This document shows positions 3,001-24,000 of a DNA stretch of 24,000 bases, piece after piece. Both the position numbers and the translations under genes were made by a program. The DNA comes from Bacillota bacterium (GTDB taxonomy: Bacteria; Bacillota; Bacilli; Paenibacillales; Paenibacillaceae). The first letter of the stretch is position 1, and the number at the start of each line of letters is the position of its first letter. Location of the stretch: the NCBI GenBank assembly GCA_023386495.1, contig JAEWJS010000138.1, forward strand, positions 7,688 to 31,687, written 5' to 3'. Below the pieces are notes generated by a model. It was not told where the DNA came from. It did not search any database and saw nothing but the letters and a program-made list of their open reading frames with translations.

Positions 3001-4211
3001 TCGCTGCCGTCCATCTGCAGTGGGCGAAGCGGGGCGAGCCATTCGAAGGTGAGCCTGCTGTCGTAGGCAAGGGTGAGGGTCGCTACACGATAACCGGATT
3101 GGCGCCGTCCACAGCATACGAAATTCGCCATTGGACGATCGACGTGAGCGGCAATGCTTCCACCGTGGGATCGCTGTTCGTCACGACGACGGCAGCAGCA
3201 CCTGGAGGCCCTTCCGGTCCGATCGGGGGCCCGGTCGGCCAGCCTAGCGCCGATTCGGACACGGAGAGCGCTGAGCTTGGCGAAGAGGCTGTCGACATCA
3301 GCCTGTTCGACGGCAAGCTGCGGATCGCCGTGCCGGCTGGCGGTGCGGGAAGCGCGAAGAAGCTCATCGCGACCAAGCTCGGCGATCCGGCGAAACCTTC
3401 CGATAAGCGGCTGCGCTTGATGTCCGACGTGTTCGAGTGGAAGCTCGACAGCGGCGAAGCGCTTGCGAAGCCGGGGCGGCTGGCCGTGGCATACGATGAG
3501 GCGGCACTCGGAACGAGCGACTCCCGCAAGCTGGGCATCTATCGCTTGGAAGCGGGCGGCGTCTGGCGCTATGTCGGCGGCATTGTGGATCGGGAGCAGG
3601 GCGTCGTGGAGATGCCGACGATCCAGCCGGGCTTTTATGCCGTGCTGATCGCGGAGCACAGCTTCCCAGACCTGACCGGCCACTGGGGCCGGGCGGACAT
3701 TGAGGTGCTGGCCGCACGCGGCATCGTGACCGGTGACCCTGGCGGCACCTTCCGTCCGAACGGCAATGTCACCCGTGCCGAATTCGTGAAGCTGCTGGCC
3801 GCGCTGATAAGCGAGGTGCCGACCGCGGCAGGCGGTTCGTTCACCGACGTGCCAGCGGATGCTTGGTATGCCGAAGCGGTAGCCAAGGCGCACGCGGCAG
3901 GCGTGGTCGTAGGGTCCGGAGGCAAATTCAGGCCGAATGATCCGATCTCGCGCGAAGAGATGGCCGTGATGCTCTACAGAGCGAGCGGATCGGGCGAGAG
4001 CCCCGCAGCGTCTCTTGCCGGCTTCCGCGACGGCGGCAAGGTGTCTCCTTGGGCCCGCGAGGCGATCGCATACGAGGTGCAGAGCGGTACGCTGCGCGGC
4101 AGCGACGGGCTGCTAAGGCCCGATGCCACCGCTACGCGAGCAGAGGCGGCGGCCGTATTGATCCGTAAGCTGGATGCGCTCGGCTTGCTCGTCATGCGAT
4201 CAACCGAATAG
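3..4211 (+). CDS. Large SLH-anchored cell-surface protein; 5' end lies outside the window. It has a Cna-B/carboxypeptidase-regulatory-like module, two FN3-like modules and three C-terminal SLH domains.
   Basis: The ORF is open from the window edge to TAG at 4209-4211. Three tandem SLH-type repeats lie at about nt 3658-4180 (FPDLTGHWGRADIEVLAARGIVTG.., FTDVPADAWYAEAVAKAHAAGVVVG.., FRDGGKVSPWAREAIAYEVQSGTLRG..). Two FN3-like repeats lie at about nt 2610-3190 (LTWQLPDDPELAKLELRY..YVFQVRAYDEAGN and LTWHDPDDPDLAAVHLQW..YEIRHWTIDVSGN). A hairpin terminator follows. Confidence 0.85.
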   Translation: MQGDRNYELMIQSMDASHSVVRYFEATSGGRIDLGEVPLEPAGILTGKAGNVVWIGGGKPAAGGTAQVRATYYLTGGGPQLSDAVAVLDVPADTELVPGTVILNGNAVEPVLQDGRYTVPIGTIVNYKIGSLQYELRIADDPVSNLLLLEPSIRFRRGSVTREEAIGRAEADLTPVTLKAPGRTGQRDLSISGSAPPGSRVTLYEGDIAVGVTEASPAGLWSIAAHIPGEGATATWQLRADAEHGSARWSSTVVAVRYDKGLPEPIAFTMRQADGRLMTLDPNGGEGRFPYVFVPGMPMTLTVEFTDPELVDNVAFTFGDQRIPASLQKGIFQAVIPSVSRGAAIGLDYTEKEPAASFDAPPPSPEEIKRQLPPSFRDARADYVYVSPRQNGGTSQSASYRGTLPNPKGGAQLDMNASMVEMTYTPNQADLDRAEQTGVPLYGFQNSVSFENGELRAQLTGYIPVDRFSQGLSAEQAAAELLEAVEASIMVSAASGNKSSGKVSALSAGHAVKVVKVSVGLAMRSTAGENTWKTIDAAYSLFDGMGVSDTLKDLERLMDKIALNCRPDLVPIYMESIMRIRNQMIAVEVFKAGLMVAGAVFGPATFGLGTIGLFLASNMMGKVLDAQVAAAITRLDEDVSEFCSPQKKKPKRPLADPEWIYDPSGYVYEVEEGNRVEGVTATVLRWNEQAGRWDVWNAGPYGQMNPLLTDREGRYAWDVPEGKWKVLYEKEGYLPAESEELIVLPPHFDVNIPMTSTLPAKPVKASALPGGAAIELLFDRHVRSEGAEEGLLAVESADTGEAVEGEWRLVEPVSVNGTEASKRLRFIPNDSLAIGGVYRVKAEAALQSYAGVPMGSDYEAEVIVTDTDTEPPLPVEALHADSDAERTLLTWQLPDDPELAKLELRYHAEGAQGEGSTVEVPLDQQYALVEGLNGSTNYVFQVRAYDEAGNYSTAEVASATGLISRSGLDVLPPAELGELDAKPGSTAIELTWHDPDDPDLAAVHLQWAKRGEPFEGEPAVVGKGEGRYTITGLAPSTAYEIRHWTIDVSGNASTVGSLFVTTTAAAPGGPSGPIGGPVGQPSADSDTESAELGEEAVDISLFDGKLRIAVPAGGAGSAKKLIATKLGDPAKPSDKRLRLMSDVFEWKLDSGEALAKPGRLAVAYDEAALGTSDSRKLGIYRLEAGGVWRYVGGIVDREQGVVEMPTIQPGFYAVLIAEHSFPDLTGHWGRADIEVLAARGIVTGDPGGTFRPNGNVTRAEFVKLLAALISEVPTAAGGSFTDVPADAWYAEAVAKAHAAGVVVGSGGKFRPNDPISREEMAVMLYRASGSGESPAASLAGFRDGGKVSPWAREAIAYEVQSGTLRGSDGLLRPDATATRAEAAAVLIRKLDALGLLVMRSTE

Positions 4212-4544: not shown

Positions 4545-6182
4545 ATGGAACAGACGAGAGCGGGGTTGTCGGTGACGGATTTGCTGCGGATACCACAATT
4601 CAAGGATGCGGTATTGTTAGGCGGCGCATCAGGCCTGTCGGAAGAGGTTAGCCGCGTGAATGTCATGGAGGTGCCGGATGTCGTCGATTGGGTTCGACCC
4701 GGAGAATTTCTGATGACGACGGGCTATCCTTTTCGGCAGGAGCCGGAAGTCATGGCCACGCTGATCGAGCAGCTAGCGGGGAAGGGCGTTGCCGCGCTCG
4801 GCATCAAGACGAAGCGGTATATCGACGCCGTGCCGGAGAACGCGATTCGCGCCGCCGACGACTGCGGGCTGCCATTGATCGAGCTGCCGCCGGACACGAC
4901 CTTCTCGGATGTGGTCCGAGAGGTCATGGAGCGTGTACTCGTGCAAGAGTCCAAGCAGCTTGCCTTGCTTCAGTATCGTGTTCAACGACTATCGTACGTG
5001 CTTCTGCACGGTGACGGGCTTGATGCGTTCTTGCAATTGCTAGAATCGCTGGTCGATAATCCCGTGGCGCTGCTGGATGACCGCGGCCAGTGGACGGCAT
5101 CGCCATCCGCGCAGGAGATATGCGAACAATTGGAAGCGGAGCATTGGCGCAGGCTGCGCGAGGATAGTCCGCGCGAGACGAGCTTCCTGCCCGCAGGCGA
5201 CCGGAGCATCCGCGTATACTGCTCAGCCGATCAGGGCGGCGAGCGGCGGCATATGCTCCTCTTGTTCGAAGAACGGCAGGAGTTCAGCATCGTCGACTCG
5301 CTGACGATCAACTGGGCGAGCGAACTGGTCGGCTTCGAGATCAGCACCGCGCAGGCTCGCCGGAAGATCGAGGCGAAGTATATCGATCAATTCCTTCAGG
5401 ATTGGATCGTCGGACGCATCGTCTCGCCGATCGATCTGCAGCTGCGCGCCGAGGCATGCGGCTGCCCGCTCGACGCAGGGATGGACTATCGGGTGGGCGT
5501 CGTTGCGGTTCAGGATCGGAAGCTGAGTGCGCCTGCTCTGCAGGAGATTGCACAACGGCTGAATTGGGAACGGACGGGCGGCGAGATGCGATGGACGGTC
5601 ATCGAAGAGAATCTCGTCGTCGTGATTGCTTCGCCTAAGGATACCGCAGGAACCGGGAGCGGGTCGGATCGGCGGAAGGACGATGCCGGCGCCGGCGCTG
5701 CGGCCGCGCTGCGGCCCTTCCTGTTCGGGCGTGAGCGTGAGTATCGCGTATGCCTGGGTCGCACGGTCGCCGCGCGGGAGTCCGTTCCGACCAGCTACCG
5801 GGAGGCCAGAAGGGCCGCCGAGGTCAGCGCGGTCTGCCAGCTTCAGCAGGAGGTCGTCTCTTACGCGGAGCTGGGTACATACTTGCTGCTGTATCGGCTG
5901 CTCGGCACGGAGGAGGCGGAGGAGTTCAAGCGCAACTACCTGTTGCCGATTCTCGACTACGACAGCCGGAGCAGTCAAGGCGCGCTGCTCAAGACGCTTA
6001 AGACCTACTTCGAATGCAACGGCAACGTCAAGGAGACCGCGGATCGCATGTTCCTTCACTACAATACGGTGATCTACCGTCTTGACCGCATCAAGAATGA
6101 GCTCGGCATTCCGCTGGATCTGGCGGAGACGCGGCTGAGGCTGCAGTTAGCGATCAAGCTGCACGAGATCAAGGAGGCATAA
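4545..6182 (+). CDS. PucR-family transcriptional regulator (PurC-like N-terminal domain, C-terminal PucR HTH)
   Basis: The C-terminal motif GNVKETADRMFLHYNTVIYRLDRIKNELG is typical of the PucR_C HTH. The N-terminus (LSVTDLLRIPQFKDAVLLGG..VNVMEVPDVVDWVRPGEFLMTTGY) is typical of the purine-catabolism regulator N-domain. ATG 4545 lies 8 nt after GGGAGG (4531-4536). The track start GTG 4539 is too close to that RBS. Confidence 0.85.
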   Translation: MEQTRAGLSVTDLLRIPQFKDAVLLGGASGLSEEVSRVNVMEVPDVVDWVRPGEFLMTTGYPFRQEPEVMATLIEQLAGKGVAALGIKTKRYIDAVPENAIRAADDCGLPLIELPPDTTFSDVVREVMERVLVQESKQLALLQYRVQRLSYVLLHGDGLDAFLQLLESLVDNPVALLDDRGQWTASPSAQEICEQLEAEHWRRLREDSPRETSFLPAGDRSIRVYCSADQGGERRHMLLLFEERQEFSIVDSLTINWASELVGFEISTAQARRKIEAKYIDQFLQDWIVGRIVSPIDLQLRAEACGCPLDAGMDYRVGVVAVQDRKLSAPALQEIAQRLNWERTGGEMRWTVIEENLVVVIASPKDTAGTGSGSDRRKDDAGAGAAAALRPFLFGREREYRVCLGRTVAARESVPTSYREARRAAEVSAVCQLQQEVVSYAELGTYLLLYRLLGTEEAEEFKRNYLLPILDYDSRSSQGALLKTLKTYFECNGNVKETADRMFLHYNTVIYRLDRIKNELGIPLDLAETRLRLQLAIKLHEIKEA

Positions 6183-6204
6183 GGATCCCGGCGGCAGAAG
6201 CGCT

Positions 6205-7770
6205 TCAGTAGCCGTCGGTCTTTCGTCCGGACTGTTCCGCAATCGCCGCGCCTTCCCTGGAAGACGCGCTGCCGAGATGAGTTGCATCCGTGTTGGCCTT
6301 CGCGAGCCCATCGGCTACCCGCCGCCCGTAGTCAGGGTCCGCCTGCGTAAAATGATGCAACATTCGCTCTTGAATGGACGGCGCGCACACCTTGAGCCCG
6401 TCGACGAGATTCGCGATCAGTTCATCGCGCTCCCAGTCCTCGAATCGCCGGTAGGTTTCGCCTGCTTGCAAGTAATCGTTCTTGCGCGGCAGCGGCTCCC
6501 GCACCAGCCGATCGTTGTAGGCCGGCTGATGCTCCTTGCCTGGCGATGGCGCTTCTTGAAGTCCGCCAAGCGAGGACGGCTCGTAGTTGACATGCGGATT
6601 CTGCCCCGGTGCCCGGTCGACGGAATAGGCCATCTGGCCATCGCGCTGGTTCGTCGCTACGCGCGTCTTCGGCGCGTTGATCGGCAGTTGCAGATAGTTC
6701 GTGCCGACCCGGTATCGCTGCGTATCGGAGTAGGAGAAGGTACGGCCCTGCAGCATCTTGTCATCGGAGAAGTCCAAGCCGTCCACGAGCACGCCCGTGC
6801 CGAATGCGGACTGCTCGACTTCGGCGAAGTAATTGTCCGGATTCCGGTCGAGCACCATGCGTCCGATCGGCAGGAAGGGGAACTGCGCTTGGTCCCACAG
6901 CTTCGTGTCGTCCAGGGGATCGTAATCGAGCTCGGGATGCTCGTCGTCGCTCATGATCTGAACGCACAGCTCCCACTCCGGATAGTCGCCCCGTGCAATG
7001 GCCTCGTACAGATCCTGCGTGGCATGGCTCGTGTTCTTCGCTTGGATCGCTTCGGCCTCCTGCTGCGTCAGGTTCTTGATGCCCTGCTTCAGGGGCTCCC
7101 AATGATACTTGACGAGAACGGCTTCGCCCTCTGCATTGACCCACTTGTACGTGTTGACACCCGAGCCTTGCATCTGCCGATAGTTGGCGGGGATTCCCCA
7201 CGGCGAATAGACGAAGGTGACCATATGCGTCGCTTCCGGCGAATTGGACACGAAGTCGAAGAATCGTTCCGGGTTCGGCAGATTCGTCACGGGATCCGGC
7301 CGGAAGGCGTGGATCATATCCGGGAATTTCAGCGGATCGCGAATGAAGAAGATCTTCAGGTTGTTGCCGACGAGATCCCAATTGCCGTCTTCCGTATAGA
7401 ACTTGACGGCGAAGCCGCGCGGATCGCGGACGGTCTCGGGCGAGTGGCCGCCGTGCACGACCGTCGAGAAGCGCACGAACACCGGGGTGCGCGTGCCGGC
7501 CTGCTGCAGCAGCTTGGCGCGGGTGTACTTGGCGATGGGCTCATCACCGACCTTGCCGTACGCTTCGAAGTAGCCGTGAGCGCCGGCGCCTCGCGCATGC
7601 ACGACGCGCTCCGGGATCCGCTCGCGGTCGAAGTGGGACATTTTCTCCAGGAAGTGGTAGTTCTCCAGCGTGGAAGGCCCGCGTGCGCCGACCGTTCGAA
7701 TGTTCTGATTGTCCGTGATGGGATGCCCCTGTCGATTCGTTAAGCGCATCTCTTGATCGTTGTTCTCCAT
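6205..7770 (-). CDS. katA: Monofunctional heme catalase (small-subunit, KatA-like)
   Basis: It carries the distal-His motif [23 protein letters not shown] and the proximal-Tyr motif [16 protein letters not shown] chose ATG 7770-7768 ([10 protein letters not shown]..), which follows GAGAGGGTG by about 10 nt. The 46 extra N-terminal codons in the track (to 7908) run through the TetR-gene terminator and overlap its stop. Confidence 0.9.
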
Positions 7771-7852
7771 TGCCGCTCTACACCCTCTCATACGCATATT
7801 CCGCTCTACTATTTGCCATTTTACGGAACGGTATGCATAAGTTAACGACGCA

Positions 7853-7887
7853 AAGAGCCGCCCCCCTCGAAGCGGGATGCGGCTCTT
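7853..7887 (-). terminator. Candidate terminator after the TetR gene (end of the ABC operon)
   Basis: A 9-bp stem pairs AAGAGCCGC (7853-7861) with GCGGCTCTT (7879-7887). On the - strand it is followed by TGCGTCGTT, which is a weak U-tract. Confidence 0.45.
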
Positions 7888-7904
7888 ATGCGCGGCGCGA
7901 TTAA

Positions 7905-8573
7905 TCAAGGACGTCCGGCGATGCCGTACAGCAGCAGCTCTACCGTCCGTTCGATCTCTTCCTCTTCATCGATCGCGTGTTCCGGGAAGAGGATGACATG
8001 GGTGGCGATCATGCCGATCAGCATGCTGACCGATGCGCGAATGATACGCCACGGGGGCGCTTCGATCAACTGGCCGCGCTCCTGGAAATGGGCGATGATC
8101 TTCTCGAGGCGAACATAGACGATATTGGACATGACACCCTTTACCTGCTCCAGCAATTCCGGTTGAAAAGGGAGCTCGTGCACCAAGATGCGAATCAGCT
8201 TGACGTTCTTGCGCGCGAATGCGAGACGGTCCCGGGCGACGGCGCGGTAGAAATCTTCGATCCGTTCGTAGGGCATATCGAGCACCTTGGCGGCGAAGTC
8301 CCGAATGAGGAAGGGCGCGACGACCTTGGCCGCGATCGGGCCGGCAATCGAGAGAAGCAGCTCCTTCTTCGTCTTATAGTGCCGGAATATGGTGCCTTCC
8401 GCTACGCCTGCCTTCTGCGCGATTTCGCTGGTGGATGCGGCGGCGAACCCTTTTTCCGCGAAAATCTCGATGGCAGCCTCCAGAATGCGCACCTGCTTGT
8501 CGGTCTTCTTCTGGTCGTCAGCTTCCGTCAAGCGGATAATATCCTCCAGCCACTGCTCCTGCGTATCTGACAT
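7905..8573 (-). CDS. TetR/AcrR-family transcriptional repressor
   Basis: The N-terminal HTH is [45 protein letters not shown]. The RBS GAAGGGAGA lies 9 nt upstream of ATG 8573. It is the last gene of the ATPase-permease-TetR string. Confidence 0.9.
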
Positions 8574-8614
8574 AGAGGATGGTCTCCCTTCAATAAATGG
8601 TTGACCTAAAGATA

Positions 8615-9667
8615 CTATATCCGCCGATGCTTGCGCAACGCCAGTACATTGGCTGTCATGAAGAGCAGCGATAGGCCGAGCAGGACATACGCCTCCTGCG
8701 CGATGGCCTGCCAGCCCTCGCCTCGGATCATGACGCTTCGCAGCGCATCGGCACCGTACTTAAGCGGCGTGATGTACGCGATCCAGCTCAGCCATGGCGA
8801 CATGCTGTCCAGATCGAACAGGCCGGAGAAGAACACCTGCGGCACGATGACGAGCGGGATGAATTGAATCAGCTGGAACTCCGAGTTGGCGAATGTCGAC
8901 AGGAAGGTGCCGAAGCTGAGCGCCGTCACCGACAAGAGCAGCATGATCAGGATCACGTAGCCGAAGGAGCCCGCCATGAAGCTGCCGAGCGCGCCGATCG
9001 TGTAGCCGGCAATCAAGATCGCTTGCACGCTCGTGAAAATCCCGAAGCCGGCCATGTAGCCCGTGACGATCTCCCAACGGCGGAGCGGGGTGGCGAGTAG
9101 CCGTTCCAGCGTGCCGCTGGTGCGCTCCTTCAGGAAGGAGACGCCGGCAATCAGGAAGACGAAGAAGAAGGCGAACAGGCCGATCAGGACGGGGCTGAGG
9201 CTGTCGAAGGTCGACAGCTCTCCGCTGCCGTGCAGGTAGTCGAAGCTCGGTCCGGCTACTCCGGTTCCCGGCACCGCAGCCGCAGCCGTTGCGGCCGTCG
9301 CATGCTGCATGGCCTGTTGGATCGTCATCATGGCGGCGCGGTTCTTCGTCGGGTCGCTCCCCTCTAGCTTCACGCGGGGCGCAGTGCCGTCCAGCCAGAT
9401 GTACGCGTCGATCGATCGGTCTGCCAACGCGGCGTTCGCGGCCTGCGTCGTAGGATAAGTCGTGACGTTGGCGTTCAGTTCGCGCAGGCTGTCCGTTATT
9501 GTCGGGGGCAGCTGCACGGTACCGAGCTTCGGTTCATACGCATCGCCGTCGAATACGAGGTACATCAGCGATAGAACGAGAATCGGCGCGGCAATGAGCA
9601 GCGCCATGGAGCGCTTATCGCGGAAGAATTGGCGAATAATTCGCAGGATGAGGGCCCGGATTCTCAT
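8615..9667 (-). CDS. ABC-2 type transporter permease
   Basis: The 350-aa protein has one N-terminal TM helix, a large extracytoplasmic loop and five C-terminal TM segments, which is the ABC-2 topology. Its start ATG overlaps the upstream ATPase stop (ATGA at 9664-9667), implying translational coupling. Confidence 0.85.
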   Translation of the reverse strand: MRIRALILRIIRQFFRDKRSMALLIAAPILVLSLMYLVFDGDAYEPKLGTVQLPPTITDSLRELNANVTTYPTTQAANAALADRSIDAYIWLDGTAPRVKLEGSDPTKNRAAMMTIQQAMQHATAATAAAAVPGTGVAGPSFDYLHGSGELSTFDSLSPVLIGLFAFFFVFLIAGVSFLKERTSGTLERLLATPLRRWEIVTGYMAGFGIFTSVQAILIAGYTIGALGSFMAGSFGYVILIMLLLSVTALSFGTFLSTFANSEFQLIQFIPLVIVPQVFFSGLFDLDSMSPWLSWIAYITPLKYGADALRSVMIRGEGWQAIAQEAYVLLGLSLLFMTANVLALRKHRRI

Positions 9668-11476: not shown

Positions 11477-12844
11477 GTGAATGCCCGAAAGGCTAACTAC
11501 GCCAAAGAAAAAGCTCGAGAACTTCAAAGAACCCTCTACCTTGCAGCTAAGGAAAAACCAAGTCGGCGGTTCCACGCGCTGTATGACAAGATCTGCAGAG
11601 AAGACATCATGACGTATGCATGGAAGAAGGTAAAGGCCAACAAGGGGAGCGCTGGAATCGATAGAGTGACCATCCAGTCCATTGTCATGGATTATGGAGA
11701 AGGACGGTTCATCAAGGAGACGTGCGGGCAACTGCGAAATGGCACCTACCGTCCATCACCCGTGAAGAGAGTGGATATCCCAAAAGGAGACGGAAGGACG
11801 AGACCGCTCGGCATACCGATCGTGCGGGATCGACTGGTCCAAATGGCTGCGAAAATCGTGCTCGAAGGCATCTTCGAAGCCGACTTCAAGGATTTCTCCT
11901 ATGGATTTCGTCCGAAACGAAGTGCACACGATGCGCTGCGCAAAATCATGGACACCACCAACTACGGGAAGGTCTACTGGGTCGTTGATGTGGACATCAA
12001 GGGGTACTTCGATAACATCCCGCATGAAAAGCTGATGAAGCTTATCGAACAGCGCGTCTGTGACCGCAAGGTGCTCAAGCTAATCCGAGGGTGGCTTACC
12101 GCAGGGGTCATGAAAGATGATCAGTTTCATGAATCCGTCATTGGGAGCCCTCAAGGTGGCGTGATATCGCCGCTACTGGCTAATATTTACCTCAACTATC
12201 TCGATACGATATGGGAACGGCAATTTGCCCATCTCGGAACACTGGTGCGCTATGCAGATGATCTTGTTGTACTGTGTCACCGGAGAGCAGAAGCCCATGA
12301 ATCGATTCGAGTTCTGAAGGCAGTATTTGCAAGGCTGGAACTGACGATGAATGTGGAGAAAAGCAAACTGGTGAACATATGGGACGACGATCAAGGCTTC
12401 GACTTTTTAGGACACCATCTCAGAAGGCTGCCGGTGCTGCGTAAAGGGGGAAAGCACAGCCGCATCCTTCGATGCTTTCCATCGCGGAAAGCGATGAAGA
12501 AAATGCGGACAACAGTGAAGGAAGTCACGGCTCCCCGGCACGTACTGCGCAAGCAACTCTCCGAGCTGGTCAAGGAGCTCAATCCAAAAATCAGGGGATG
12601 GCGAAACTACTACGCGAAGGTAGATAAAGGGGCAGCCAATGGCTTCTTGTCTAAAATCGACTGGTATATACGCGGCAGGTTGATGATCTTCTGCAGGAAG
12701 AAGTTCAAACGGTGGAAGATATCTTACCTAAGCGGAGTCCTAAAACAAGCAAAACTTAGATCGGTCACGACTTGGCGAGTACGTACTGCGCAAGGTGAAG
12801 AACGTCGGAAAGCCGTATGCGGGAAAACCGCACGTACGGTTTGA
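11477..12844 (+). CDS. ltrA: Group II intron reverse transcriptase/maturase (no endonuclease domain)
   Basis: GTG 11477 lies 9 nt after GAGGAGG. RT motifs present are RRFHALYDKI, GIDRVT, RPLGIPIVRDRLVQ, SYGFRP and the YADD catalytic box (12251-12262). The maturase X motif is LNPKIRGWRNYYAKV. No HNH or Cys-rich C-terminus is present. Confidence 0.92.
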   Translation: MNARKANYAKEKARELQRTLYLAAKEKPSRRFHALYDKICREDIMTYAWKKVKANKGSAGIDRVTIQSIVMDYGEGRFIKETCGQLRNGTYRPSPVKRVDIPKGDGRTRPLGIPIVRDRLVQMAAKIVLEGIFEADFKDFSYGFRPKRSAHDALRKIMDTTNYGKVYWVVDVDIKGYFDNIPHEKLMKLIEQRVCDRKVLKLIRGWLTAGVMKDDQFHESVIGSPQGGVISPLLANIYLNYLDTIWERQFAHLGTLVRYADDLVVLCHRRAEAHESIRVLKAVFARLELTMNVEKSKLVNIWDDDQGFDFLGHHLRRLPVLRKGGKHSRILRCFPSRKAMKKMRTTVKEVTAPRHVLRKQLSELVKELNPKIRGWRNYYAKVDKGAANGFLSKIDWYIRGRLMIFCRKKFKRWKISYLSGVLKQAKLRSVTTWRVRTAQGEERRKAVCGKTARTV

Positions 12845-16262: not shown

Positions 16263-17213
16263 TCAACGGCATACGAGCACATGCCTGACGAAGGAGCCTT
16301 TCCTTACGGCTCCGCGGTCGACGACGGTCCAGCCGACCTCGGCCAGCAGCTCGTCGATCGGCTGGACCGTGACGACAGCCATGCGATCGGCCAGACGTCT
16401 GGCATGCAGCAGAATCGAGCGCTGCGCATCGTCGGATATGCGGGAGACATGGTTATACGGCAGGTCGACGATGGCCGTATCATAGCGGCCGCCGGCATCC
16501 TCGATGCTGCCGTATGTGACGGGTACGTCGTAGCCGTAATAAGCGAGATTCTCCCGTGCGCCCTGCACGACGATCGGATTCAAGTCGCGGCCGACGATGT
16601 CGATTCCCATCGATAGCGCTTCGACGAGGACGGTGCCGATCCCGCAGCAGGGATCGATCGCGCGTACGCCATGCGGCTGCGGCACCGCGATATTCGCCAG
16701 CGCTCTGGCTACGCGCGTGCTGAGCGCTATGGAATAGTGGCGGGGCTTATCCATATGCTTCAGCCAGACGGCTTCATTCTTGGCGTACGGGCCGAAATAC
16801 CAGCGGCCGCGGCAGGTCGTGACGCCATAGCGCAGATCCGGCTTCCGGATATCCGCAATGCCTTGCACGCGGTCTCCAAGCTCTCGCTCGATACGCCGCT
16901 GCTCGTCATAGGACAGCTGCGGGGCTTGATCATGCGCCGGCGAGGCCGCGAAGTGCACCTTGAAGGTGGCATTCGACAGGTGCAAGCCTTCGACCTGACG
17001 GGCAAGCGCTTCGAAGCTGCCGGCCTCGTAGAGGACCTCGACACGCTCCCGTACAAAGGGGCTGCGGCTCGGATCCAGCAGGGTGCGCGACAGGTGCAGC
17101 GCATGCTGGGCATCCTCGAACGAGGCTTGGAACAGCATGCGCATCTCAAGGCTGCACAGCGAGACCTCGTCTTCATGGCAGGCGATCGTATAGAGATAGA
17201 GGGGCTGTAGCAT
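16263..17213 (-). CDS. SAM-dependent methyltransferase, Trm11/UPF0020-like (putative RNA m2G or N6-A type)
   Basis: SAM motif I is IDPCCGIGTVLVEAL and motif IV is VDLPYN (a DPPY-like variant). ATG 17213 lies 8 nt after GGAGG. The longer track ORF (to 17354) lacks an RBS. Confidence 0.8.
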   Translation of the reverse strand: MLQPLYLYTIACHEDEVSLCSLEMRMLFQASFEDAQHALHLSRTLLDPSRSPFVRERVEVLYEAGSFEALARQVEGLHLSNATFKVHFAASPAHDQAPQLSYDEQRRIERELGDRVQGIADIRKPDLRYGVTTCRGRWYFGPYAKNEAVWLKHMDKPRHYSIALSTRVARALANIAVPQPHGVRAIDPCCGIGTVLVEALSMGIDIVGRDLNPIVVQGARENLAYYGYDVPVTYGSIEDAGGRYDTAIVDLPYNHVSRISDDAQRSILLHARRLADRMAVVTVQPIDELLAEVGWTVVDRGAVRKGSFVRHVLVCR

Positions 17214-17241
17214 GGAAGGTTCCTCCATATAATGGGTGAGA

Positions 17242-17269
17242 TTTACATCGAGAACCGCTATACTAGAAT
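17242..17269 (+). promoter_or_regulatory. Possible sigma-A promoter of the ComQ-like/peptide genes
   Basis: TTTACA (17242-17247), 16 nt, TAGAAT (17264-17269), about 40 nt upstream of ATG 17308. Support comes from hexamer matches only. Confidence 0.35.
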
Positions 17270-17307
17270 CAGAATCGACGAGATGATGATGATAGGGAGC
17301 GAGTCGG

Positions 17308-18258
17308 ATGGAATGGATCAATCGATATGAGGAAGAGATCGCAGCCATATTCACATTGGCCGAGGATGAGACGGCGAAGTACCCCGCGCCGCTGGACGAG
17401 CTTGGCCGTGCCTGGGTGCAGCGGCTGAATCCATTGCGCGGCGCGCGGTCGAACTATATCGGTTATCTGCTTCCCTACTGGATGCGCGATGCGGCAGAGA
17501 TCGACCTGGCCGCATGCAGGGAGCTGGCCGCTGCGAATATTCATGCGCTCATTCATTTCTTCCTGCTCGATGACGTGATTGATACGGGGCCCGTCATGGA
17601 CAAGGCGGCGATCCGCGACGCGCTCGTGCTGGGCCAGCTCTTCCAAGCCTCGTTCCAACGGCGCTATACACGCTATTATACCTCCGATTCGCCGATCTGG
17701 TCCCATTATCAGCGTTACTTGGCAGAATGGGCGCATGCCGTAGCCCGTGAGAATGTCGTGCAGGCGAACCCGAATGACGTGCGCCAGCTAGCCGGCAAGT
17801 CGGCACCGGTGAAGCTAAGCGCGGCCGCAGTGCTGCTGTTGGCCGATCAGGAGGCCATGCTCCCGGAGATCGAGGAGGCAGTCGAGCTTACGCTCGCCAC
17901 GCTGCAGTTATCCGATGATTGGGCGGATTGGGGCGATGATCTCGCGGAAGGCAATAACAGCGCGTTCCTGTCTCTTGTGCGCAGCTGTCTGCTTGTCGAA
18001 GCCGATCACCCGCTGGATGAGCAGCAGGTGAAGCGGGCGATTTATCATGCGGGGTGCTTGGAGCGCTTGGCGGATATTGTCGAAATCCATCTGGCCAAAA
18101 TGGACGAACTCGCGCATGTTCCGTCGATGTTGGGCGCCTTTCATCATGCGCTGGTACAAGGAATTCGAGCGGATGCGACCGCTGCTGGCGAGTCGACAAG
18201 GACGCTGGCGACAGGGGGAATATTTGACTATTTTTTGTCGAATATAACAAAAACTTGA
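17308..18258 (+). CDS. Polyprenyl-synthase-fold (class 1 isoprenoid enzyme) protein, ComQ-like candidate peptide prenyltransferase
   Basis: The 316-aa protein starts 8 nt after AGGGAG. The first Asp-rich motif is FFLLDDVID (aa 88-92, nt 17569-17583). The second is LQLSDDWADWGDD (aa 203-207, nt 17914-17928), about 115 aa later, as in trans-prenyl synthases (FARM/SARM). LAGKSAPVKLSAAAVLL resembles the KT(G/A)xL helix. Confidence 0.7.
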   Translation: MEWINRYEEEIAAIFTLAEDETAKYPAPLDELGRAWVQRLNPLRGARSNYIGYLLPYWMRDAAEIDLAACRELAAANIHALIHFFLLDDVIDTGPVMDKAAIRDALVLGQLFQASFQRRYTRYYTSDSPIWSHYQRYLAEWAHAVARENVVQANPNDVRQLAGKSAPVKLSAAAVLLLADQEAMLPEIEEAVELTLATLQLSDDWADWGDDLAEGNNSAFLSLVRSCLLVEADHPLDEQQVKRAIYHAGCLERLADIVEIHLAKMDELAHVPSMLGAFHHALVQGIRADATAAGESTRTLATGGIFDYFLSNITKT

Positions 18259-18277
18259 AGACGAACCGGGACAAGCG

Positions 18278-18286
18278 TGGTATGAT
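18278..18286 (+). promoter_or_regulatory. Possible extended -10 promoter directly upstream of the peptide gene
   Basis: TGGTATGAT (TGn + TATGAT) lies 42 nt upstream of ATG 18328. There is no good -35 element. Confidence 0.3.
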
Positions 18287-18327
18287 AGGTACGAGCTTCA
18301 ACCACATTATGGAAAGGTTGTGTCTGC

Positions 18328-18561
18328 ATGTCAGTGACGCTGAAAGAACAGATTGTCAGGAAAGTATGGGAAGAGCCTGCCTTCAAGCAGAATCTGATGG
18401 CCGATCCTAAACTCGCGATCAAAGAGGCATTCGGTATCGAAATACCTGCCGGCATCGAAGTGAAAGTGGTCGAAGAAAATGCAGAAAGCTTCTATCTCAC
18501 ACTCCCGCCGAAGCCAGAAGAGCTCGTACCGAACGAGCCTAAACCGAACGGCGTCTGGTAA
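18328..18561 (+). CDS. NHLP (nitrile-hydratase-like leader peptide) family precursor peptide, 77 aa, ending ..PNEPKPNGVW
   Basis: The sequence KEQIVRKVWEEPAFKQNLMADPKLAIKEAFGIEIPAGIEVKVVEENAESFYLTLPPKP follows the NHLP leader pattern (AW.D..FK..L..DP..A..E.G..LP.G.EVKVVE....LYLVLP). The RBS GGAAAGG lies 10 nt upstream. Confidence 0.8.
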   Translation: MSVTLKEQIVRKVWEEPAFKQNLMADPKLAIKEAFGIEIPAGIEVKVVEENAESFYLTLPPKPEELVPNEPKPNGVW

Positions 18562-18573
18562 GTCATACGAATA

Positions 18574-20460
18574 TCAATCTTGCAGGGCCAAGGGGAACCG
18601 AATGATGACTTCGGTTCCTTTTCCTTTGGTGCTCTTGAATTCGATTCTGCCCTTCATCGCTTCGATGATGCGGTAGGTCACCATCAGACCGAGTCCCGTC
18701 CCCTTCGATTTGGTCGAATAGAACGGCTCTCCCAGCTTGGCGATCTCCTCTGCGTCCATGCCTTCCCCGTTATCCGTCACATGAATGAAGGCTTCCTCGT
18801 CCTTGGCATAGGCATAGATCTCGATAATGCCGTCACTGCGCAGTGCCTCGATGCTATTCTTGATGAAGTTGATGAAGGCTTGCTTGAACTTCGAAGAATT
18901 CCCTTGAATATATAGCTTCTCCTCAATATCGATCCGCAGGACGCCGCCGTGCAGGGACGCCATCGGGGTCATAATCGCTTCGATCTGCTGAATTTCTTCT
19001 GCTAAGTCGAGCCTGGTGACCGATTCCAGCTCCGGCTTGGCGAATGTCAGGAAGTCCGTAATGATCGAGGATGCACGATCCAGCTCATTGATGGCCATGC
19101 CAAAATAATGGCGGTTCTTCTCATCGGACTTCTCCTCCATCAGCTGCAGGAATCCGCGGGTCACCTGCAGCGGGTTACGCACTTCATGCGCGACCGAAGC
19201 CGCAAGATCGCTGATGATTTTCATCTTCTCCGCGCGCTGCAGGCTATGGTTATACAGCTCAAGCTCCTTCGAGTAGGAGACGAGCTTCGCATAATCGTCC
19301 ATGATGCTGCGTGCGAGAATGATGACGAGCGTGAGGATCAGGGCCACGACGCCGAATTTCCACAGGAACAGCACATACCGCATATCCGATAGGAAGTAGA
19401 AGGTCAGATCGGCTGCGCCGGAGACGGCAAGCAGGATCAGGCCGAGCGACAGGATGAGCGAGTGCCTGCTCCTCGTGCGGGCAAGCTGGATCGTATACGC
19501 GATGATCATCACCATCTGGAGCAGAATGAGCACGCCGAAGATCATGGTGGTGAACAAGTCGTAGAACGCCTCGAATCGCTTGTCGGTGATCTGATGGACC
19601 AACGCGATCGCGAGACAGATTGCGGAATACTGCATCAAGAATTTGCCGTATCTGCTGAACAGGCGATACCTGCCCTGGAATACATGGTCGATGTATGCGT
19701 GCAAGGCCGGGAAGAGCAGGAATAAGGACAGGTCGAAGATGAACAGCAGGCCATGGCCGTACTCCTTGAAGTAGAGATAAGGATAGGGCGAATAGACGAT
19801 GATCAGCGTGCCTGTCGATAAGGCAATGAGGCTGAGCGATATCCACGGTTTATGCTGTCTTCTGTTCAGATAGCCTGCGCAGAGGAGCATCATCAAGCCC
19901 AGGAAAGCCACGGAGCCGCCTAGCAGCAGGTCAGGCAGGTCATGGCGGGTCGCGCGGGCCGACAGCCCCTCGAAGTCCCCGACTCTCACGCTGCTCAGCA
20001 GGCCGATGCGGTCATTGGACGAGAGGATGCGCAGATAGAGATCGGTCTCTTCATCGGCTGGCTCTACTGCCAGCAGCAGCCGATTGAGGTCGAATGCAAA
20101 TTTGCGCTCGGATTGGAGCAGCAGTTGACCGCCATGGTAGACCGTCAGATCATGTCCGTTCAGACGCTCGATAAGCAAACCGGGGCGCGGCCATTCGGAA
20201 GTGGCGGGCAATCGCAGATGGACCCAGACGCCTCGGGCGCCTTGGGGAATCTGGTACCGAGGCAAGTCGATCCCTCCCGGTTTCCATGGGCCGTCTACGG
20301 GAGGAACGGTTCCTTGTGCCGCTTGGTCCTCAATAGTAAGAAGCTGCCACTCCTTCAAGATTCGATCGGGAGCAGAGGCATGCGCTTGCAGCGGCTCCAG
20401 GAGGAGCAAGCATGCAGCAACCGTTAGTAATAGGATCGAAAACCAGCGCAATAATGTCAT
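18574..20460 (-). CDS. Orphan sensor histidine kinase with a 7TMR-DISM extracellular domain, 7 TM segments and a KinA-type HisKA/HATPase core
   Basis: It has a signal peptide, a roughly 170-aa extracytoplasmic domain (GVWVHLRLP..LLIERLNGHDLTVYHGG) and about 7 TM helices. The H-box AASVAHEVRNPLQVTRGFLQLM resembles those of Bacillus sporulation kinases. The HATPase N and G boxes include DNGEGM and GTGLGL. No response regulator is adjacent. Confidence 0.9.
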   Translation of the reverse strand: MTLLRWFSILLLTVAACLLLLEPLQAHASAPDRILKEWQLLTIEDQAAQGTVPPVDGPWKPGGIDLPRYQIPQGARGVWVHLRLPATSEWPRPGLLIERLNGHDLTVYHGGQLLLQSERKFAFDLNRLLLAVEPADEETDLYLRILSSNDRIGLLSSVRVGDFEGLSARATRHDLPDLLLGGSVAFLGLMMLLCAGYLNRRQHKPWISLSLIALSTGTLIIVYSPYPYLYFKEYGHGLLFIFDLSLFLLFPALHAYIDHVFQGRYRLFSRYGKFLMQYSAICLAIALVHQITDKRFEAFYDLFTTMIFGVLILLQMVMIIAYTIQLARTRSRHSLILSLGLILLAVSGAADLTFYFLSDMRYVLFLWKFGVVALILTLVIILARSIMDDYAKLVSYSKELELYNHSLQRAEKMKIISDLAASVAHEVRNPLQVTRGFLQLMEEKSDEKNRHYFGMAINELDRASSIITDFLTFAKPELESVTRLDLAEEIQQIEAIMTPMASLHGGVLRIDIEEKLYIQGNSSKFKQAFINFIKNSIEALRSDGIIEIYAYAKDEEAFIHVTDNGEGMDAEEIAKLGEPFYSTKSKGTGLGLMVTYRIIEAMKGRIEFKSTKGKGTEVIIRFPLALQD

Positions 20461-20719
20461 CCCCTGCCATGATTGTTTCTGTCTACCATAATGGGATTTC
20501 GACGCAGACGGGCATTTTCCTGTAGGGGGAATGAGAATGTATGGCAGCCAGCTGCGAAAATGCGTCGATCGTCCTTGTCCGGCACGCGATGGGAACAGTT
20601 TACGAGCGGCCCGATATCAGCTAACATAGATAGAATAATAGGACTATAGTCTCTGTTTCGCGGTCATGCTGGCATGGCAGCTATGTATGGTGGCGTCCAA
20701 TAGCGGGGGTGTCGATCAG

Positions 20720-23700
20720 ATGAAGGATGAGGGCGTTGCGAATAAGGTTCGGGGAGAGCGGTTGACGATCGGCGTAATCGTCGAGAACAGCGCGCGTGAG
20801 GACGAGAATCGGATGCGGGCCGGCATTATGGAAGCCGCTGAACGCTATGATGCTCACCTGATCTGCTTCACGCACCTGGAAGCCGCCGTAAAGAATATAT
20901 CGTACGGCGTGGATGATCAGTATCGCAGAAGCCACGACATTCTGCTGCAGCTCGTCGAACAGTTCGAACTGGACGGCTTAATCTTCCTTGGCTGGTCGCT
21001 ACTCTATGACGGCGACCAGCTGAAGCGCCTGCAAGAGAGGTTCCCGAACATACCGATGATCAGTATGGGCAAGCCATGCGAGGATGTGCCGTTCACGTAC
21101 TTCAAGGGCGGCGATTATGTCAGCCAGATGCTCGAGCACTTGATCGCGGAGCATGGCCGGAAGCGAATCGCTTTCGTCGAGTCGTGGATCCCGGACACGC
21201 GCAAGGATTATTACGATGAGACGATGGCGGCGCACGGCCTGCTCGACGAGCAGCTCTTCGTGAGCGCGGACGATCTCGCAGGCGTGACCTTGCCGGACCG
21301 GCCGGAGGGCGCGCTCGCGATATTGCTCGATGAGCGCAAGGTCAGCTTCGACGCGATCATCGTGATGCGGCAAGAAGAGGCTCGAATCATGCTCGAGCTG
21401 CTCCAGCAGCGCGGCTTGCGCGTGCCGGAGGATGTGGCGCTTGCCAGCTATGAAGACGATGTGTCGATCCAGTACGCCTCCGTGCCGATTTCGACGATTT
21501 ATTTTCCGTTCAAGGAGCTCGGCTATGCTAGCTGCGAGAAGCTGATCGCGCTGCTTCGCGGAGAAGATGTGCCTGCGGCAACCAAGGTGCCAGGCAGCCT
21601 GCTGATTCGGCAATCCTGCGGCTGCATGAACGCCGAGCGGCTTGCGAGGCGGGATAGCAGGCAGGGGAGCAGCGACGAGGAGGGCGAGCTATTGTCCGGT
21701 CTCGACCTCGCGGCACTGGACGCGGCATTCGAGCGCAGCATGGAGACAGCCGACGTGAACAAGTATGTCGACGAGCTGAAGCGGCAGATGGATCCGCGCA
21801 GAAGCAGGCGCAATGAGAACCAGCAGCTCGTCACGGTGCTCCGCAGCCGTTATGCGGACCGCGGACCGGACAACGGAGAACCCCTTCGTCGAGCGGAGGA
21901 TATCTGGCATGCCGCACGGATTGCCGTCAGCGAAGCGGAGAAGTTCTGGATCGCAAGCGAGATGATCCGAACGACGAGAACCGAGGAAATGCTAGAGGAA
22001 TTCAGCCAATCGCTGCTGAACACCTACGATATCACGAAGACGCTGGAGAGCTTAAGCTTCTACTTGCGGGAGCTGGATATCCCGGGCTGCAGCATTTTCC
22101 TGCGTGGGGAAGAGGCCGATCCGTTCGCGGCGTGCACGCATATTTTCGCTTATGAGAACGACGTCCGACTCTATATCCAAGATCCGAAGACCGATACGAG
22201 AGCCTATCATCGCCGTCTGGTCGAAGAGAGCCGCACCTGCACGACGCGGATCGTCATGCTCCTGCACGTGGATACGAATTACCTCGGATATGTCGTGTTC
22301 GAACCGGGGCCATGGAACGGCGCGCTGTACTTGCGGCTCGCGATCCAGCTTAGCAATGCAATCGTCGGCGCCCACATGGTCGATCGGCTGCAGCGCGAGA
22401 TCGCGCTGCGAGGCGAGAAGGAACAACAGCTCATGTATCATGCCCATTTCGATGCGGTCACGGACATGCTGAACCGCAGGACGTTCCGGGATGCGGTGAA
22501 GCTGCTGCAGGAACGGGGGGAGCAGGAGGCGGCCGGAGCCGTGCCTGCAACGGGAGACGCGGAGGTGCCGGCAGATCCGGAATGGTACTTGTTCTATGCC
22601 GATCTGGACGGGTTCAAGAGCGTGAACGACAGTATGGGACACGCGGTCGGCGATCAGGTGCTGGTAGAGGTGGCCGGCCGGATTCGGCAGGTGATGGAGG
22701 ACTTCGTCGTGAAGCTGCCGAAGACGCTGCTTGCGATTAACGGCGATGAGGCGGGCTGCATTTTCCGCATCGGCGGGGATGAATTCACGATGATCGTGAA
22801 GCAGATGAGCCGGGAAGAAGCGGCGGTACTGGCTAGTCGGCTGATTGAGCAACTGCGTGCCCCTTTCGCCATAGCGGATACCGGCATTTCGCTGTCATGC
22901 AGCCTGGGCATCAGCTGCTATCCCGCGGATGCGAAGGGCATGCTGATCCGCCATGCGGATATGGCCATGTACAATGCCAAGCGGCAAGGCGGCAATCGCT
23001 TCGCGTTCTTCGACGAGGGGATGGAGCAGGAGGTCAAGCGGAAGCTCGAGCTCGGCAAATATTTGCGGCATGCCCTGGATTACGAGGAGCTGTCGCTGGT
23101 GTATCAGCCGCTGGTCGAAGGCGTGGAAGGTGCCATCATCGGGGTGGAAGCGCTCTTGCGCTGGAATCATCCGAAGCTGGGCCCCGTTCCGCCAAGCACC
23201 TTCATTCCGCTTGCGGAGGAATTAGGGCTCATCGACCGCATCGGCGAGTGGGTGCTTCGCGAAGCGTGCCGCCAGGCGGCACGATGGCAGCAGGAAGGGT
23301 ATGCGCCGCTGCTCCTCGCGGTCAATCTCTCCGTGAAGCAGTTCCAGGATGGGCTGCTGGTCGGCAAATTGAGGGACCTGTTGAAGGAGACGGGGCTTGC
23401 CCCGGACAGGCTGGAGCTGGAGATTACGGAGAACGTCTCCATGCAGGCCGAGCACCTGCCTGTCCTGCGCGAGCTCCGCGAGCTGGGCGTAGCCGTCTCG
23501 ATCGATGACTTCGGCACCCACTATTCATCCCTGAGCTACTTGAAGCGGTTTTCCGGTCACGAAGCTGAAGCTCGATCAGTCCTTCGTCCGCGGCATCCAG
23601 ACCGAACAGAAGGACCGCGAGATGATCAAGGCCATCGTATCCGTCGCGAAGGCATTCGAATTGGAGATCATCGCCGAAGGCGTGGAGACGCTCGCGGAGG

Positions 23701-23801
23701 CCGAATTCCTGATCGAGATGGGCTGCACGCAGATGCAGGGCTACTACTTCCATCGTCCGATGGGGGCAGAGCAGGTACGCGAGCTGCTGCGTCGGGCTTG
23801 A
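20720..23801 (+). pseudogene. PBP1(LacI-type ligand-binding)/GAF-like/GGDEF/EAL c-di-GMP signalling protein, frameshifted in the EAL domain (or a sequencing error)
   Basis: GGDEF is intact (RIGGDEFTMIV) and the EAL motif is present (GVEALLRW). After SIDDFGTHYSSLSYLKRF the frame read as given turns into RS-rich nonsense and ends at 23842. The +1 frame from 23553 reads PVTKLKLDQSFVRGI..IAEGVETLAEAEFL..GCTQMQGYYFHRP and stops at 23799-23801. The shift maps to the T4 run at 23549-23552. The start is uncertain: ATG 20720 has a GGGGG RBS 10 nt upstream, and the alternatives are 20666 and 20687. Confidence 0.75.
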
Positions 23802-23802
23802 C

Positions 23803-24000
23803 CTACGGCTTCGGCACCGCGTATGTGAGCATGACGATCTGATTCATCCGCTCAACCTGCGTCAGCCGGAAGGTGCTTGGTAGGGTTCCCTTGGGGAATA
23901 AGGGGAGACCGCTGCCGAGCACCTTAGGGATGATCGCGATGTGCATCGTCTCGAGCAGGCCGGCAGCCAGGAATTGTTCCACGAGCTGTCCGCCCCCGAC
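23803..24000 (-). CDS. Dihydrofolate-reductase-like (RibD C-terminal domain) protein, 3' end only
   Basis: The - strand frame is open from the window edge and reads VGGGQLVEQFLAAGLLETMHIAIIPKVLGSGLPLFPKG..LTYAVPKP, ending at TAG (23805-23803). The pattern GGG..L...L..GL.DE..L...P..LG.G..LF is typical of RibD_C/YwjB-like proteins. It is not in the supplied ORF track because no Met lies within the window. Confidence 0.6.
   Translation of the reverse strand, partial: VGGGQLVEQFLAAGLLETMHIAIIPKVLGSGLPLFPKGTLPSTFRLTQVERMNQIVMLTYAVPKP

Follow-up and report, generated by a model that had tools for sequence, protein, structure and literature searches.

ComQ, an enzyme with the isoprenoid-synthase fold, prenylates the indole C3 of a tryptophan near the C-terminus of ComX, giving rise to a tricyclic pyrroloindole. 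The locus described here, located at positions 17308 to 20460 of a 24,000-nucleotide stretch of Paenibacillaceae DNA (contig JAEWJS010000138.1; the whole stretch is referred to as the window), encodes an enzyme with prenyl-synthase features, a small peptide and a sensor histidine kinase, and the first two of these genes had been proposed in an initial annotation as a new peptide prenylation system. The closest described system is the three-gene PalQ/PalX/PalP cluster of Paenibacillus alvei (Miyata, Ito & Fujinami, Adv Sci 2023, PMC10853753), in which PalP is a histidine kinase, PalX an NHLP-type precursor whose C-terminal Trp is conserved, and PalQ an enzyme of the isoprene-synthase superfamily that carried an earlier annotation as a terpene synthase. 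In vitro, PalQ accepts C5, C10 and C15 prenyl groups but not C20, and performs a forward prenylation at the indole C3 of the C-terminal Trp, resulting in a tricyclic pyrroloindole (PMC10853753). The reaction is Mg2+ or Mn2+ dependent, specific for Trp and more efficient when the leader is attached, and it is lost upon the addition of alanines past the Trp; furthermore, residue Q197 is proposed to contact the indole NH (PMC10853753). In a 2026 review, PalQ, ComQ and the P domain of ChrPC are presented as an established class of 'trans-IDS-like' (trans-isoprenyl diphosphate synthase-like) peptide prenyltransferases (PMC13290415), and the initial view of ComQ as the sole well-characterised peptide-modifying enzyme of this fold is consequently outdated. 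A 2026 preprint on StheQ makes no mention of PalQ or NHLP.

Relationship of the locus to the PalQ/PalX/PalP system

The window carries an open reading frame (ORF) for a PalQ-type peptide tryptophan prenyltransferase of 316 aa (17308-18258, plus strand), followed after a gap of 69 nt, on the same strand, by a PalX-type precursor ORF of 77 aa (18328-18561), and then by the gene of a PalP-type orphan sensor histidine kinase of 628 aa on the minus strand (18574-20460). These assignments are based on PalQ homology and a trans-isoprenyl-diphosphate-synthase-like fold for the enzyme, on the TIGR03793 model and PalX homology for the peptide, and on PalP homology together with HisKA and HATPase domains for the kinase. 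By sequence comparison the three genes are orthologs of palQ, palX and palP, and the locus very probably constitutes a complete PalQ-PalX-PalP module, i.e. a divergent member of the known PalQXP family. The enzyme-peptide pair reported initially is real, yet the third conserved gene, the convergent downstream histidine kinase, had been missed.

The sequence of P. alvei PalQ was obtained from a profile search rather than from the printed alignment of the published supplement. This family profile search recovered two P. alvei proteins, P0109 and P0120 (E 1e-87), and the published residues K39, D89, D93, Q197, D200 and D204 map exactly onto P0109, P0109 hence being PalQ itself or an allele nearly identical to it. 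Aligned end to end with P0120, the window enzyme shows 34% identity (BLASTP; E 2e-59, 316 of 312 residues in the alignment); identity to PalX is 43% for the window peptide, whose terminal Trp falls in register, and identity to PalP is 41% for the window kinase across 628 residues (E 4e-170), with an identical phospho-His helix. The corresponding locus of P. alvei TS-15 (L072) has the same layout, with PalQ on the plus strand, a gap of 67 nt, PalX on the plus strand ending in ...DNVRRFFW, and a convergent kinase gene. The two loci differ in the predicted core (EPKPNGVW in the window versus DNVRRFFW in PalX) and in the distance between the peptide and kinase stop codons (12 nt versus 83 nt). Relative to P. 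alvei, the window locus belongs to a divergent, Cohnella-like lineage, and its nearest genome match is a Bacillota metagenome-assembled genome (L001). Additionally, Table S1 of the 2023 study lists the Cohnella abietis homologs A0A3T1DEA5 and A0A3T1DE98 (PMC10853753). Judged by its printed N-terminus, A0A3T1DEA5 is our C. abietis protein P0012; this protein shares 48% identity with the window enzyme and falls in the similarity-network cluster of PalQ.

The two Asp-rich motifs noted initially, LLDDVID and LSDDWAD, were confirmed in the 316-aa ORF as D88/D89/D92 and D203/D204/D207, 115 residues apart. The first (DDVID, 17569-17583, plus strand) corresponds to D89/D90/D93 of PalQ, while the second, together with Q200 (QLSDDWAD, 17905-17928, plus strand), corresponds to PalQ Q197 and D200/D201/D204. 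An alignment of 46 homologs shows no variation at residues D88, D89, D92, Q200, D203, D207, W208 or D211, and the 68 full-length locus enzymes, when aligned with PalQ, likewise all retain D88/D89/D92, Q200 and D203/D204/D207. Position 39 is not invariant, as K39 of PalQ is replaced by R39 in the window enzyme, although it is basic in both. A match of the enzyme to Pfam (PF00348 included) or NCBIfam was not detected at E <= 1, and its assignment as a 'prenyl synthase' thus rests on the Asp motifs, the predicted fold and PalQ homology rather than on PF00348. Protein searches returned 68 clusters, nearly all from Cohnella and Paenibacillus, and mostly named 'hypothetical protein' in the databases, with a few entries named 'class 1 isoprenoid biosynthesis enzyme', 'polyprenyl synthetase' or 'terpene synthase'. 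In an exhaustive profile search (clusters at 50% identity), 99 clusters were found at E <= 1e-30, 436 at <= 1e-10 and 1,546 at <= 1e-3. Some of the weaker relatives (E ~1e-25; P0239, P0241, P0244, P0247, P0249, P0250 and P0253) are multidomain proteins of 700-1,100 aa with a PalQ-like domain, and from their sequences may be of the fused prenyltransferase-cyclase (ChrPC) type of the 2026 review (PMC13290415).

An AlphaFold2 model computed from the 46-member alignment is of high confidence and all-helical (predicted local distance difference test 92.6, predicted template modelling score 0.90). Among solved structures it most resembles trans-polyprenyl diphosphate synthases (4JYX, 5ZE6, 3AQB, 3OYR and others), with template modelling scores of 0.6-0.68 and 12-18% identity, and a search of the family sequence profile against PDB sequences returned nothing below E 0.27. 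In common with canonical trans-isoprenyl diphosphate synthases such as E. coli octaprenyl diphosphate synthase (5ZE6) and polyprenyl synthase (4JYX/3OYR), the enzyme is all-helical with two DDxxD motifs facing a central cavity; it differs from them in lacking a PF00348 match and in that the acceptor would be a peptide Trp rather than isopentenyl diphosphate. In the 2026 review, the second Asp motif is described as repurposed, serving to recognise the Trp (PMC13290415). From published descriptions, the PalQ type shares its fold class with Ord1/XiaM and the P domain of ChrPC. Residues Q216/D219 of Ord1 correspond to Q197/D201 of PalQ and to Q200/D204 of the window enzyme, and the Ord1 crystal structure supports a Gln/Asp mechanism (PMC12510300). 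Unlike the PalQ type, Ord1 prenylates free indole or a tryptophan-derived small molecule, whereas ChrPC modifies an internal Trp and has a fused cyclase domain (PMC13290415).

The gene order is reminiscent of that of ComQ/ComX/ComP/ComA of B. subtilis, where the enzyme and peptide genes are adjacent and the gene of a membrane histidine kinase comes next (PMC10853753). PalQ and ComQ nevertheless share at most 25% identity and fall into separate network clusters (PMC10853753), and it is by this PalQ literature, together with the missing match to Pfam and NCBIfam models, that the window enzyme is set apart from ComQ. ComQ is without a genuine second Asp motif and acts on an internal Trp, whereas enzymes of the PalQ type require a terminal one; furthermore, ComX has no NHLP leader, unlike the PalX-type peptides. 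With respect to the ComQ family (IPR033965) and the ComQXPA system, the locus showed no sequence-model match and no conserved response regulator within 6 kb.

Conservation of the module and of its precursor peptides

To define the extent of the module, 71 Paenibacillaceae genome loci were fetched around the enzyme homologs, and every ORF of at least 90 aa within a range of 6 kb was clustered across all loci, with no preset families. The enzyme, peptide and kinase were the only recurrent families, the remaining recurrent clusters being antisense shadow ORFs of the enzyme and kinase genes, and neither a response regulator nor a protease nor an exporter formed a recurrent family. An NHLP peptide gene lies directly 3' of the enzyme gene in 67 of the 71 loci, and in two of the other four the contig edge cuts off the region concerned. 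A kinase gene homologous to that of the window (39-59% full-length identity) adjoins the peptide gene in convergent orientation in 68 loci. The co-occurrence of enzyme and peptide that had been suggested as a check is thereby borne out, and the class of peptide (see below) follows the enzyme tree. The present analysis places a divergent Cohnella-like locus firmly within the PalQXP family and adds that, across 71 genomes, the module consists of exactly three genes.

Several loci depart from this layout. L046 is a decayed or variant module, in which the enzyme and kinase genes lie ~90 nt apart and the peptide gene is absent (6001-8807), and in L068, also decayed or variant, the enzyme gene is followed by unrelated genes (6001-7500). 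L013 (Cohnella xylanilytica) carries a complete module and, 4.5 kb away, a second peptide-kinase pair with no adjoining enzyme gene (1240-3360, 6001-9006), the two peptides being of different classes (...NFVW versus ...SVWN). In one Paenibacillus clade (L051-L055, L058 and L059, ~7000-8400), two to four precursor genes stand in tandem at each locus, with cores that differ between copies.

The 77-aa peptide described initially, situated 69 nt downstream of the enzyme gene and ending in ...PNEPKPNGVW, was confirmed at 18328-18561 on the plus strand, as was its NHLP leader: the TIGR03793 model scored 70.4 bits against a cut-off of 50.9, with peptide residues 5-66 matching model positions 5-66 of 77. 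When aligned to the published cleavage site of PalX, the window peptide has a predicted boundary that would leave an NHLP-type leader of residues 1-69 (18328-18534; TIGR03793, 43% identity to PalX) and a core EPKPNGVW, aligned to DNVRRFFW of PalX, with the putative acceptor Trp77 as its last residue (18535-18561, stop codon included). The window core contains no Cys, Ser or Thr. Across the homologous peptides the core sequences are highly variable; in all 80 intact peptides, Trp is either the last (43) or the second-to-last residue (37), and this Trp is both the only one outside the KAWEDP motif of the leader and the sole invariant residue of the core.

Exactly one residue, mostly S, N, G or T, thus follows the conserved Trp in 37 of the 80 PalX-type peptides, here termed the W+1 class (L004, L009, L011, L018, L020, L022, L024, L025, L027, L029, L030, L034, L035, L037, L040, L043, L045, L051-L055, L058 and L059; peptide genes at ~7000-8400). 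The W-terminal and W+1 classes track the enzyme tree, in that the nearest-neighbour enzyme shares the class in 61 of 63 cases, and peptide class correlates with enzyme positions 28, 50, 52, 153, 178 and 198 (window numbering). The window pair is of the canonical W-terminal class, like PalQ/PalX, and, in common with PalQ, the window enzyme has the residues typical of that class. The published loss of PalQ activity upon the addition of residues past the Trp does not account for the W+1 class, which may be new and would need an enzyme of different or relaxed specificity or, alternatively, a trimming step.

Promoter and terminator elements of the precursor gene

A candidate sigma-70-type promoter (TTTACA-16-TAGAAT, 10/12 consensus matches, weak) was found by a consensus scan upstream of the enzyme gene at 17242-17269 on the plus strand. 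The initial annotation had additionally suggested that the peptide gene possesses an extended -10 promoter of its own, and the element in question, TGGTATGAT, is indeed present at 18278-18286 on the plus strand. No site was called by the consensus promoter scan at this position, because there is no -35 element at a spacing of 16-18 nt. The suggestion is nonetheless supported by conservation, as the pattern TGnTAnnnT occurs 40-75 nt upstream of 72 of 80 peptide genes (tandem copies counted), mostly at -48 to -57, against a background of 0.00056 per nt, i.e. ~0.02 expected per 36-nt window. Among enzyme-peptide intergenic regions, 61 of 68 carry it ~50 nt before the peptide start, and it is kept in L006 and L069 despite the insertion of 1.2 and 2.1 kb, respectively, between the enzyme and peptide genes. 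Each of the tandem precursor copies in L051-L055, L058 and L059 has a TGnTAnnnT of its own. The Shine-Dalgarno sequence of the peptide gene, GGAAAGG (18311-18317, plus strand), forms a conserved block in the alignment of the 5' untranslated regions. A hairpin hiding the ribosome-binding site was considered for the conserved box in this region (AACCAC...GGAAGGTTGTG) and rejected, as RNAalifold predicted zero pairs on 30 sequences; the box is the Shine-Dalgarno sequence and start context only.

Downstream of the peptide gene, an intrinsic-terminator-like hairpin, GGGGAACCGAA-N7-TTCGGTTCC, is followed by a T-rich tail (18590-18628, plus strand; delta G -17.4 kcal/mol, z -3.2) and lies antisense within the last codons of the kinase gene. 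The built-in scan did not call this hairpin, which was instead established by conservation and controls: 67 of 68 loci have a hairpin with a T-rich tail no more than 130 nt from the peptide stop, compared with 49 of 200 random control windows, and 50 of 68 have the specific GGGGAACCGAA-N7-TTCGGTTCC motif. The element is antisense to the kinase codons for KGKGTExxxRFP, in which synonymous choice is constrained (GGA 49/58, ACC 47/51, GAA 48/51); the same amino acids a few codons upstream in the kinase display near-even codon use. This constraint at synonymous sites suggests that selection acts on the nucleotide element itself.

The arrangement is a consequence of how tightly the two genes converge. 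In 49 of 68 loci the 3' ends of the peptide and kinase ORFs abut or overlap, the overlap reaching up to 35 nt, so that the terminator of one gene is made from codons of the other; in the window, the spacing of only 12 nt between the stop codons places the hairpin inside the kinase gene. With its own promoter and its own terminator, the peptide gene thus represents a self-contained transcription unit nested against the kinase gene, and these conserved, precursor-specific elements extend what has been described for the family. A conserved terminator lying antisense inside the final codons of a kinase gene would appear to be new, and one might speculate that the convergent transcription of peptide and kinase has a regulatory role.

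The kinase, the proposed signalling route and neighbouring genes

The kinase consists of an N-terminal signal sequence, an extracytoplasmic domain of ~150 aa, seven transmembrane helices, and HisKA (PF00512) and HATPase_c domains, the last two being matched by their models. Its seven-helix block gave near-full-length but sub-threshold matches to 7TMR-DISM_7TM in five of eight orthologs. The phospho-acceptor domain of ComP is HisKA_3, which differs in type from HisKA; the window kinase combines HisKA with a 7TMR-DISM-like sensor and has no adjoining ComA-like regulator, unlike ComP/ComA. The closest solved kinase core is that of Geobacillus sporulation kinase B (KinB; PDB 3D36, 190 bits, ~50% identity), followed by ZraS (106 bits), while the NCBIfam KinD model reached 157.7 bits, far under its cut-off of 775. 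Paenibacillus retains the full Spo0F-Spo0B-Spo0A relay (PMC12826061). The KinB-like core, the lack of a regulator nearby and the presence of this relay suggest, as a lead derived from sequence similarity, that the kinase may feed the sporulation phosphorelay. A KinB-like orphan kinase with no partner regulator in its vicinity may represent a new finding, and a literature search turned up no paper on the biology of PalX or PalP.

Starting from what was observed here (the orthology of the three genes, the conservation of the catalytic residues and of the Trp, and the promoter and terminator elements), the following route may be proposed. The 77-aa precursor, with its NHLP leader and short core, would be transcribed from the enzyme-gene promoter as well as from its own extended -10, and would be bound, with the help of the leader, by the PalQ-type enzyme, which is probably a homodimer. 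With Mg2+ and an allylic prenyl diphosphate as donor, C10 or C15 being the likeliest, the prenyl group would be transferred to the indole C3 of Trp77, upon which the backbone nitrogen would close onto C2 to form the kind of tricyclic pyrroloindole seen in ComX. In this scheme, the published work on the ortholog PalQ supplies the chemistry, the dependence on metal, the enhancement of activity by the leader and the strict need for a C-terminal Trp, whereas the length of the prenyl chain in vivo, the site of cleavage, export and the role of the kinase as receptor are predictions. A protease would then trim the leader to yield the predicted product EPKPNGV-W(prenyl), and the lipidated peptide, once released, would probably be sensed by the adjoining kinase with its seven transmembrane helices, thereby completing a ComQXP-like pheromone circuit. 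The wider proposition, that PalQXP produces a ComX-like cell-cell signal received by a KinB-like orphan kinase that feeds Spo0F-Spo0B-Spo0A, with the precursor gene as a separate, strongly expressed unit whose terminator lies antisense in the kinase codons, is put forward as tentative and is rather doubtful in its entirety. In the case that it holds, a peptide prenylated on Trp would act as a gate on sporulation or on behaviour under Spo0A control in Paenibacillaceae, and signal production and receptor expression would be coupled via convergent transcription.

Several points weigh against the interpretation of the locus as a PalQXP module acting by this route. A D200A/D204A mutant of PalQ stayed active, which makes the precise part played by the second Asp motif uncertain (PMC10853753), and at 34% identity to PalQ the donor chain length and regiochemistry of the window enzyme could differ. 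The papers cited here report no in vivo product isolated for any Pal system. Furthermore, the receptor role of the kinase rests on its likeness to ComP, which is only an analogy, given that the phospho-acceptor type and the membrane architecture differ, and the ORF clustering of the 71 loci identified no response regulator, exporter or protease within 6 kb of any locus.

The alternatives were weighed against the same evidence. The claim of the initial annotation that the locus represents a new class of RiPP (peptides that are ribosomally synthesised and then modified post-translationally), defined by a previously unreported combination of NHLP leader and prenyl-synthase-fold enzyme, might draw on the absence of Pfam and NCBIfam matches and on the many 'hypothetical protein' entries, the pair appearing unclassified when judged by sequence only, but is highly improbable: the same three-gene cluster was biochemically characterised in 2023 and Cohnella homologs were listed in Table S1 of that study (PMC10853753), the enzyme class is established in the 2026 review (PMC13290415), and all three window genes are orthologous to PalQ/PalX/PalP, so that literature and orthology tests together refute it. 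Enzyme-leader combination, chemistry and gene cluster were all published in 2023, PalQ is already being engineered for peptide lipidation, and no new class is opened by the locus. The statement that NHLP leaders are unknown with enzymes of this fold is outdated for the same reason (PMC10853753); conversely, the underlying idea of Trp prenylation was right, being experimentally demonstrated for the ortholog PalQ acting on PalX (PMC10853753). There is similarly very little to recommend the view that the 316-aa protein is a housekeeping trans-prenyl diphosphate synthase or class I terpene synthase and that the small ORF is unrelated to it. In its favour, structural comparison ranks octaprenyl, hexaprenyl and geranylgeranyl diphosphate synthases first, the protein has both DDxxD motifs and some homologs are named 'polyprenyl synthetase' or 'terpene synthase'; however, these structural matches share only 12-18% identity, the best profile E-value is 0.27, PF00348 is unmatched at E <= 1, a Trp-ending NHLP peptide is tied to the gene in 67 of 71 loci with its class following the enzyme tree, and the ortholog PalQ prenylates a peptide (PMC10853753).

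An explanation that accepts the prenylated peptide, yet sees in it a membrane-active antimicrobial lipopeptide or a cis-acting membrane-anchored product, with the kinase regulating or protecting rather than receiving a pheromone, is unlikely. Prenylation boosts membrane activity, as in PalQ-modified antimicrobial peptides (PMC13290415), NHLP precursors typically belong to natural-product RiPPs, no response regulator lies nearby and the cores are highly variable. Set against this, neither an immunity gene nor a dedicated exporter is conserved in the ORF clustering of the 71 loci, the predicted cores are short and lack amphipathic character, often being acidic or neutral (EPKPNGVW in the window), and the strict three-gene pairing with a sensor kinase of seven transmembrane helices, together with the second peptide-kinase pair of L013, is a better fit to a ligand and its receptor. 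The possibility that the peptide is the substrate of a YcaO/TOMM, lanthipeptide synthetase or radical-SAM enzyme encoded elsewhere, the adjoining enzyme being incidental, is barely credible: NHLP leaders are best known in association with such enzymes and weak, sub-threshold matches to TOMM-type peptide models were obtained, but no YcaO, LanM/LanB or radical-SAM gene is present in the 24-kb window, none is recurrent in the 71 loci, the window core is devoid of Cys, Ser and Thr, and Trp is the sole invariant core residue across the homologous peptides. Within the PalQXP interpretation, to which we return as the preferred one, modest new leads come from the architecture of the transcription unit, from the KinB-like orphan kinase and from the subclade of W+1 peptides, the kinase in particular providing a concrete and testable hypothesis on the signalling target and pathway of the peptide.

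Two genes flanking the module were considered as parts of the system and rejected, since a methyltransferase gene (16263-17354, minus strand) recurred in none of the 71 loci and a GGDEF/EAL gene (20666-23842) in only three. The methyltransferase is UPF0020/TIGR01177-like and overlaps the enzyme start only if the listed upstream GTG is used; an internal ATG near 17219-17234 is the likelier start and would leave a divergent promoter region of ~75 nt. The gene at 20666-23842, on the plus strand, encodes a protein with Peripla_BP_3, GGDEF and EAL domains, the EAL match of which ends at model position 167 of 236 and resumes in the +1 frame past ...LSYLKRF (FPVTKLKLDQSFVRG...); this frameshift, near 23545-23555, reflects either a sequencing error or a pseudogene. 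Elsewhere in the window, a group II intron reverse transcriptase/maturase with RVT_1 and GIIM domains is encoded at 11477-12844 on the plus strand.

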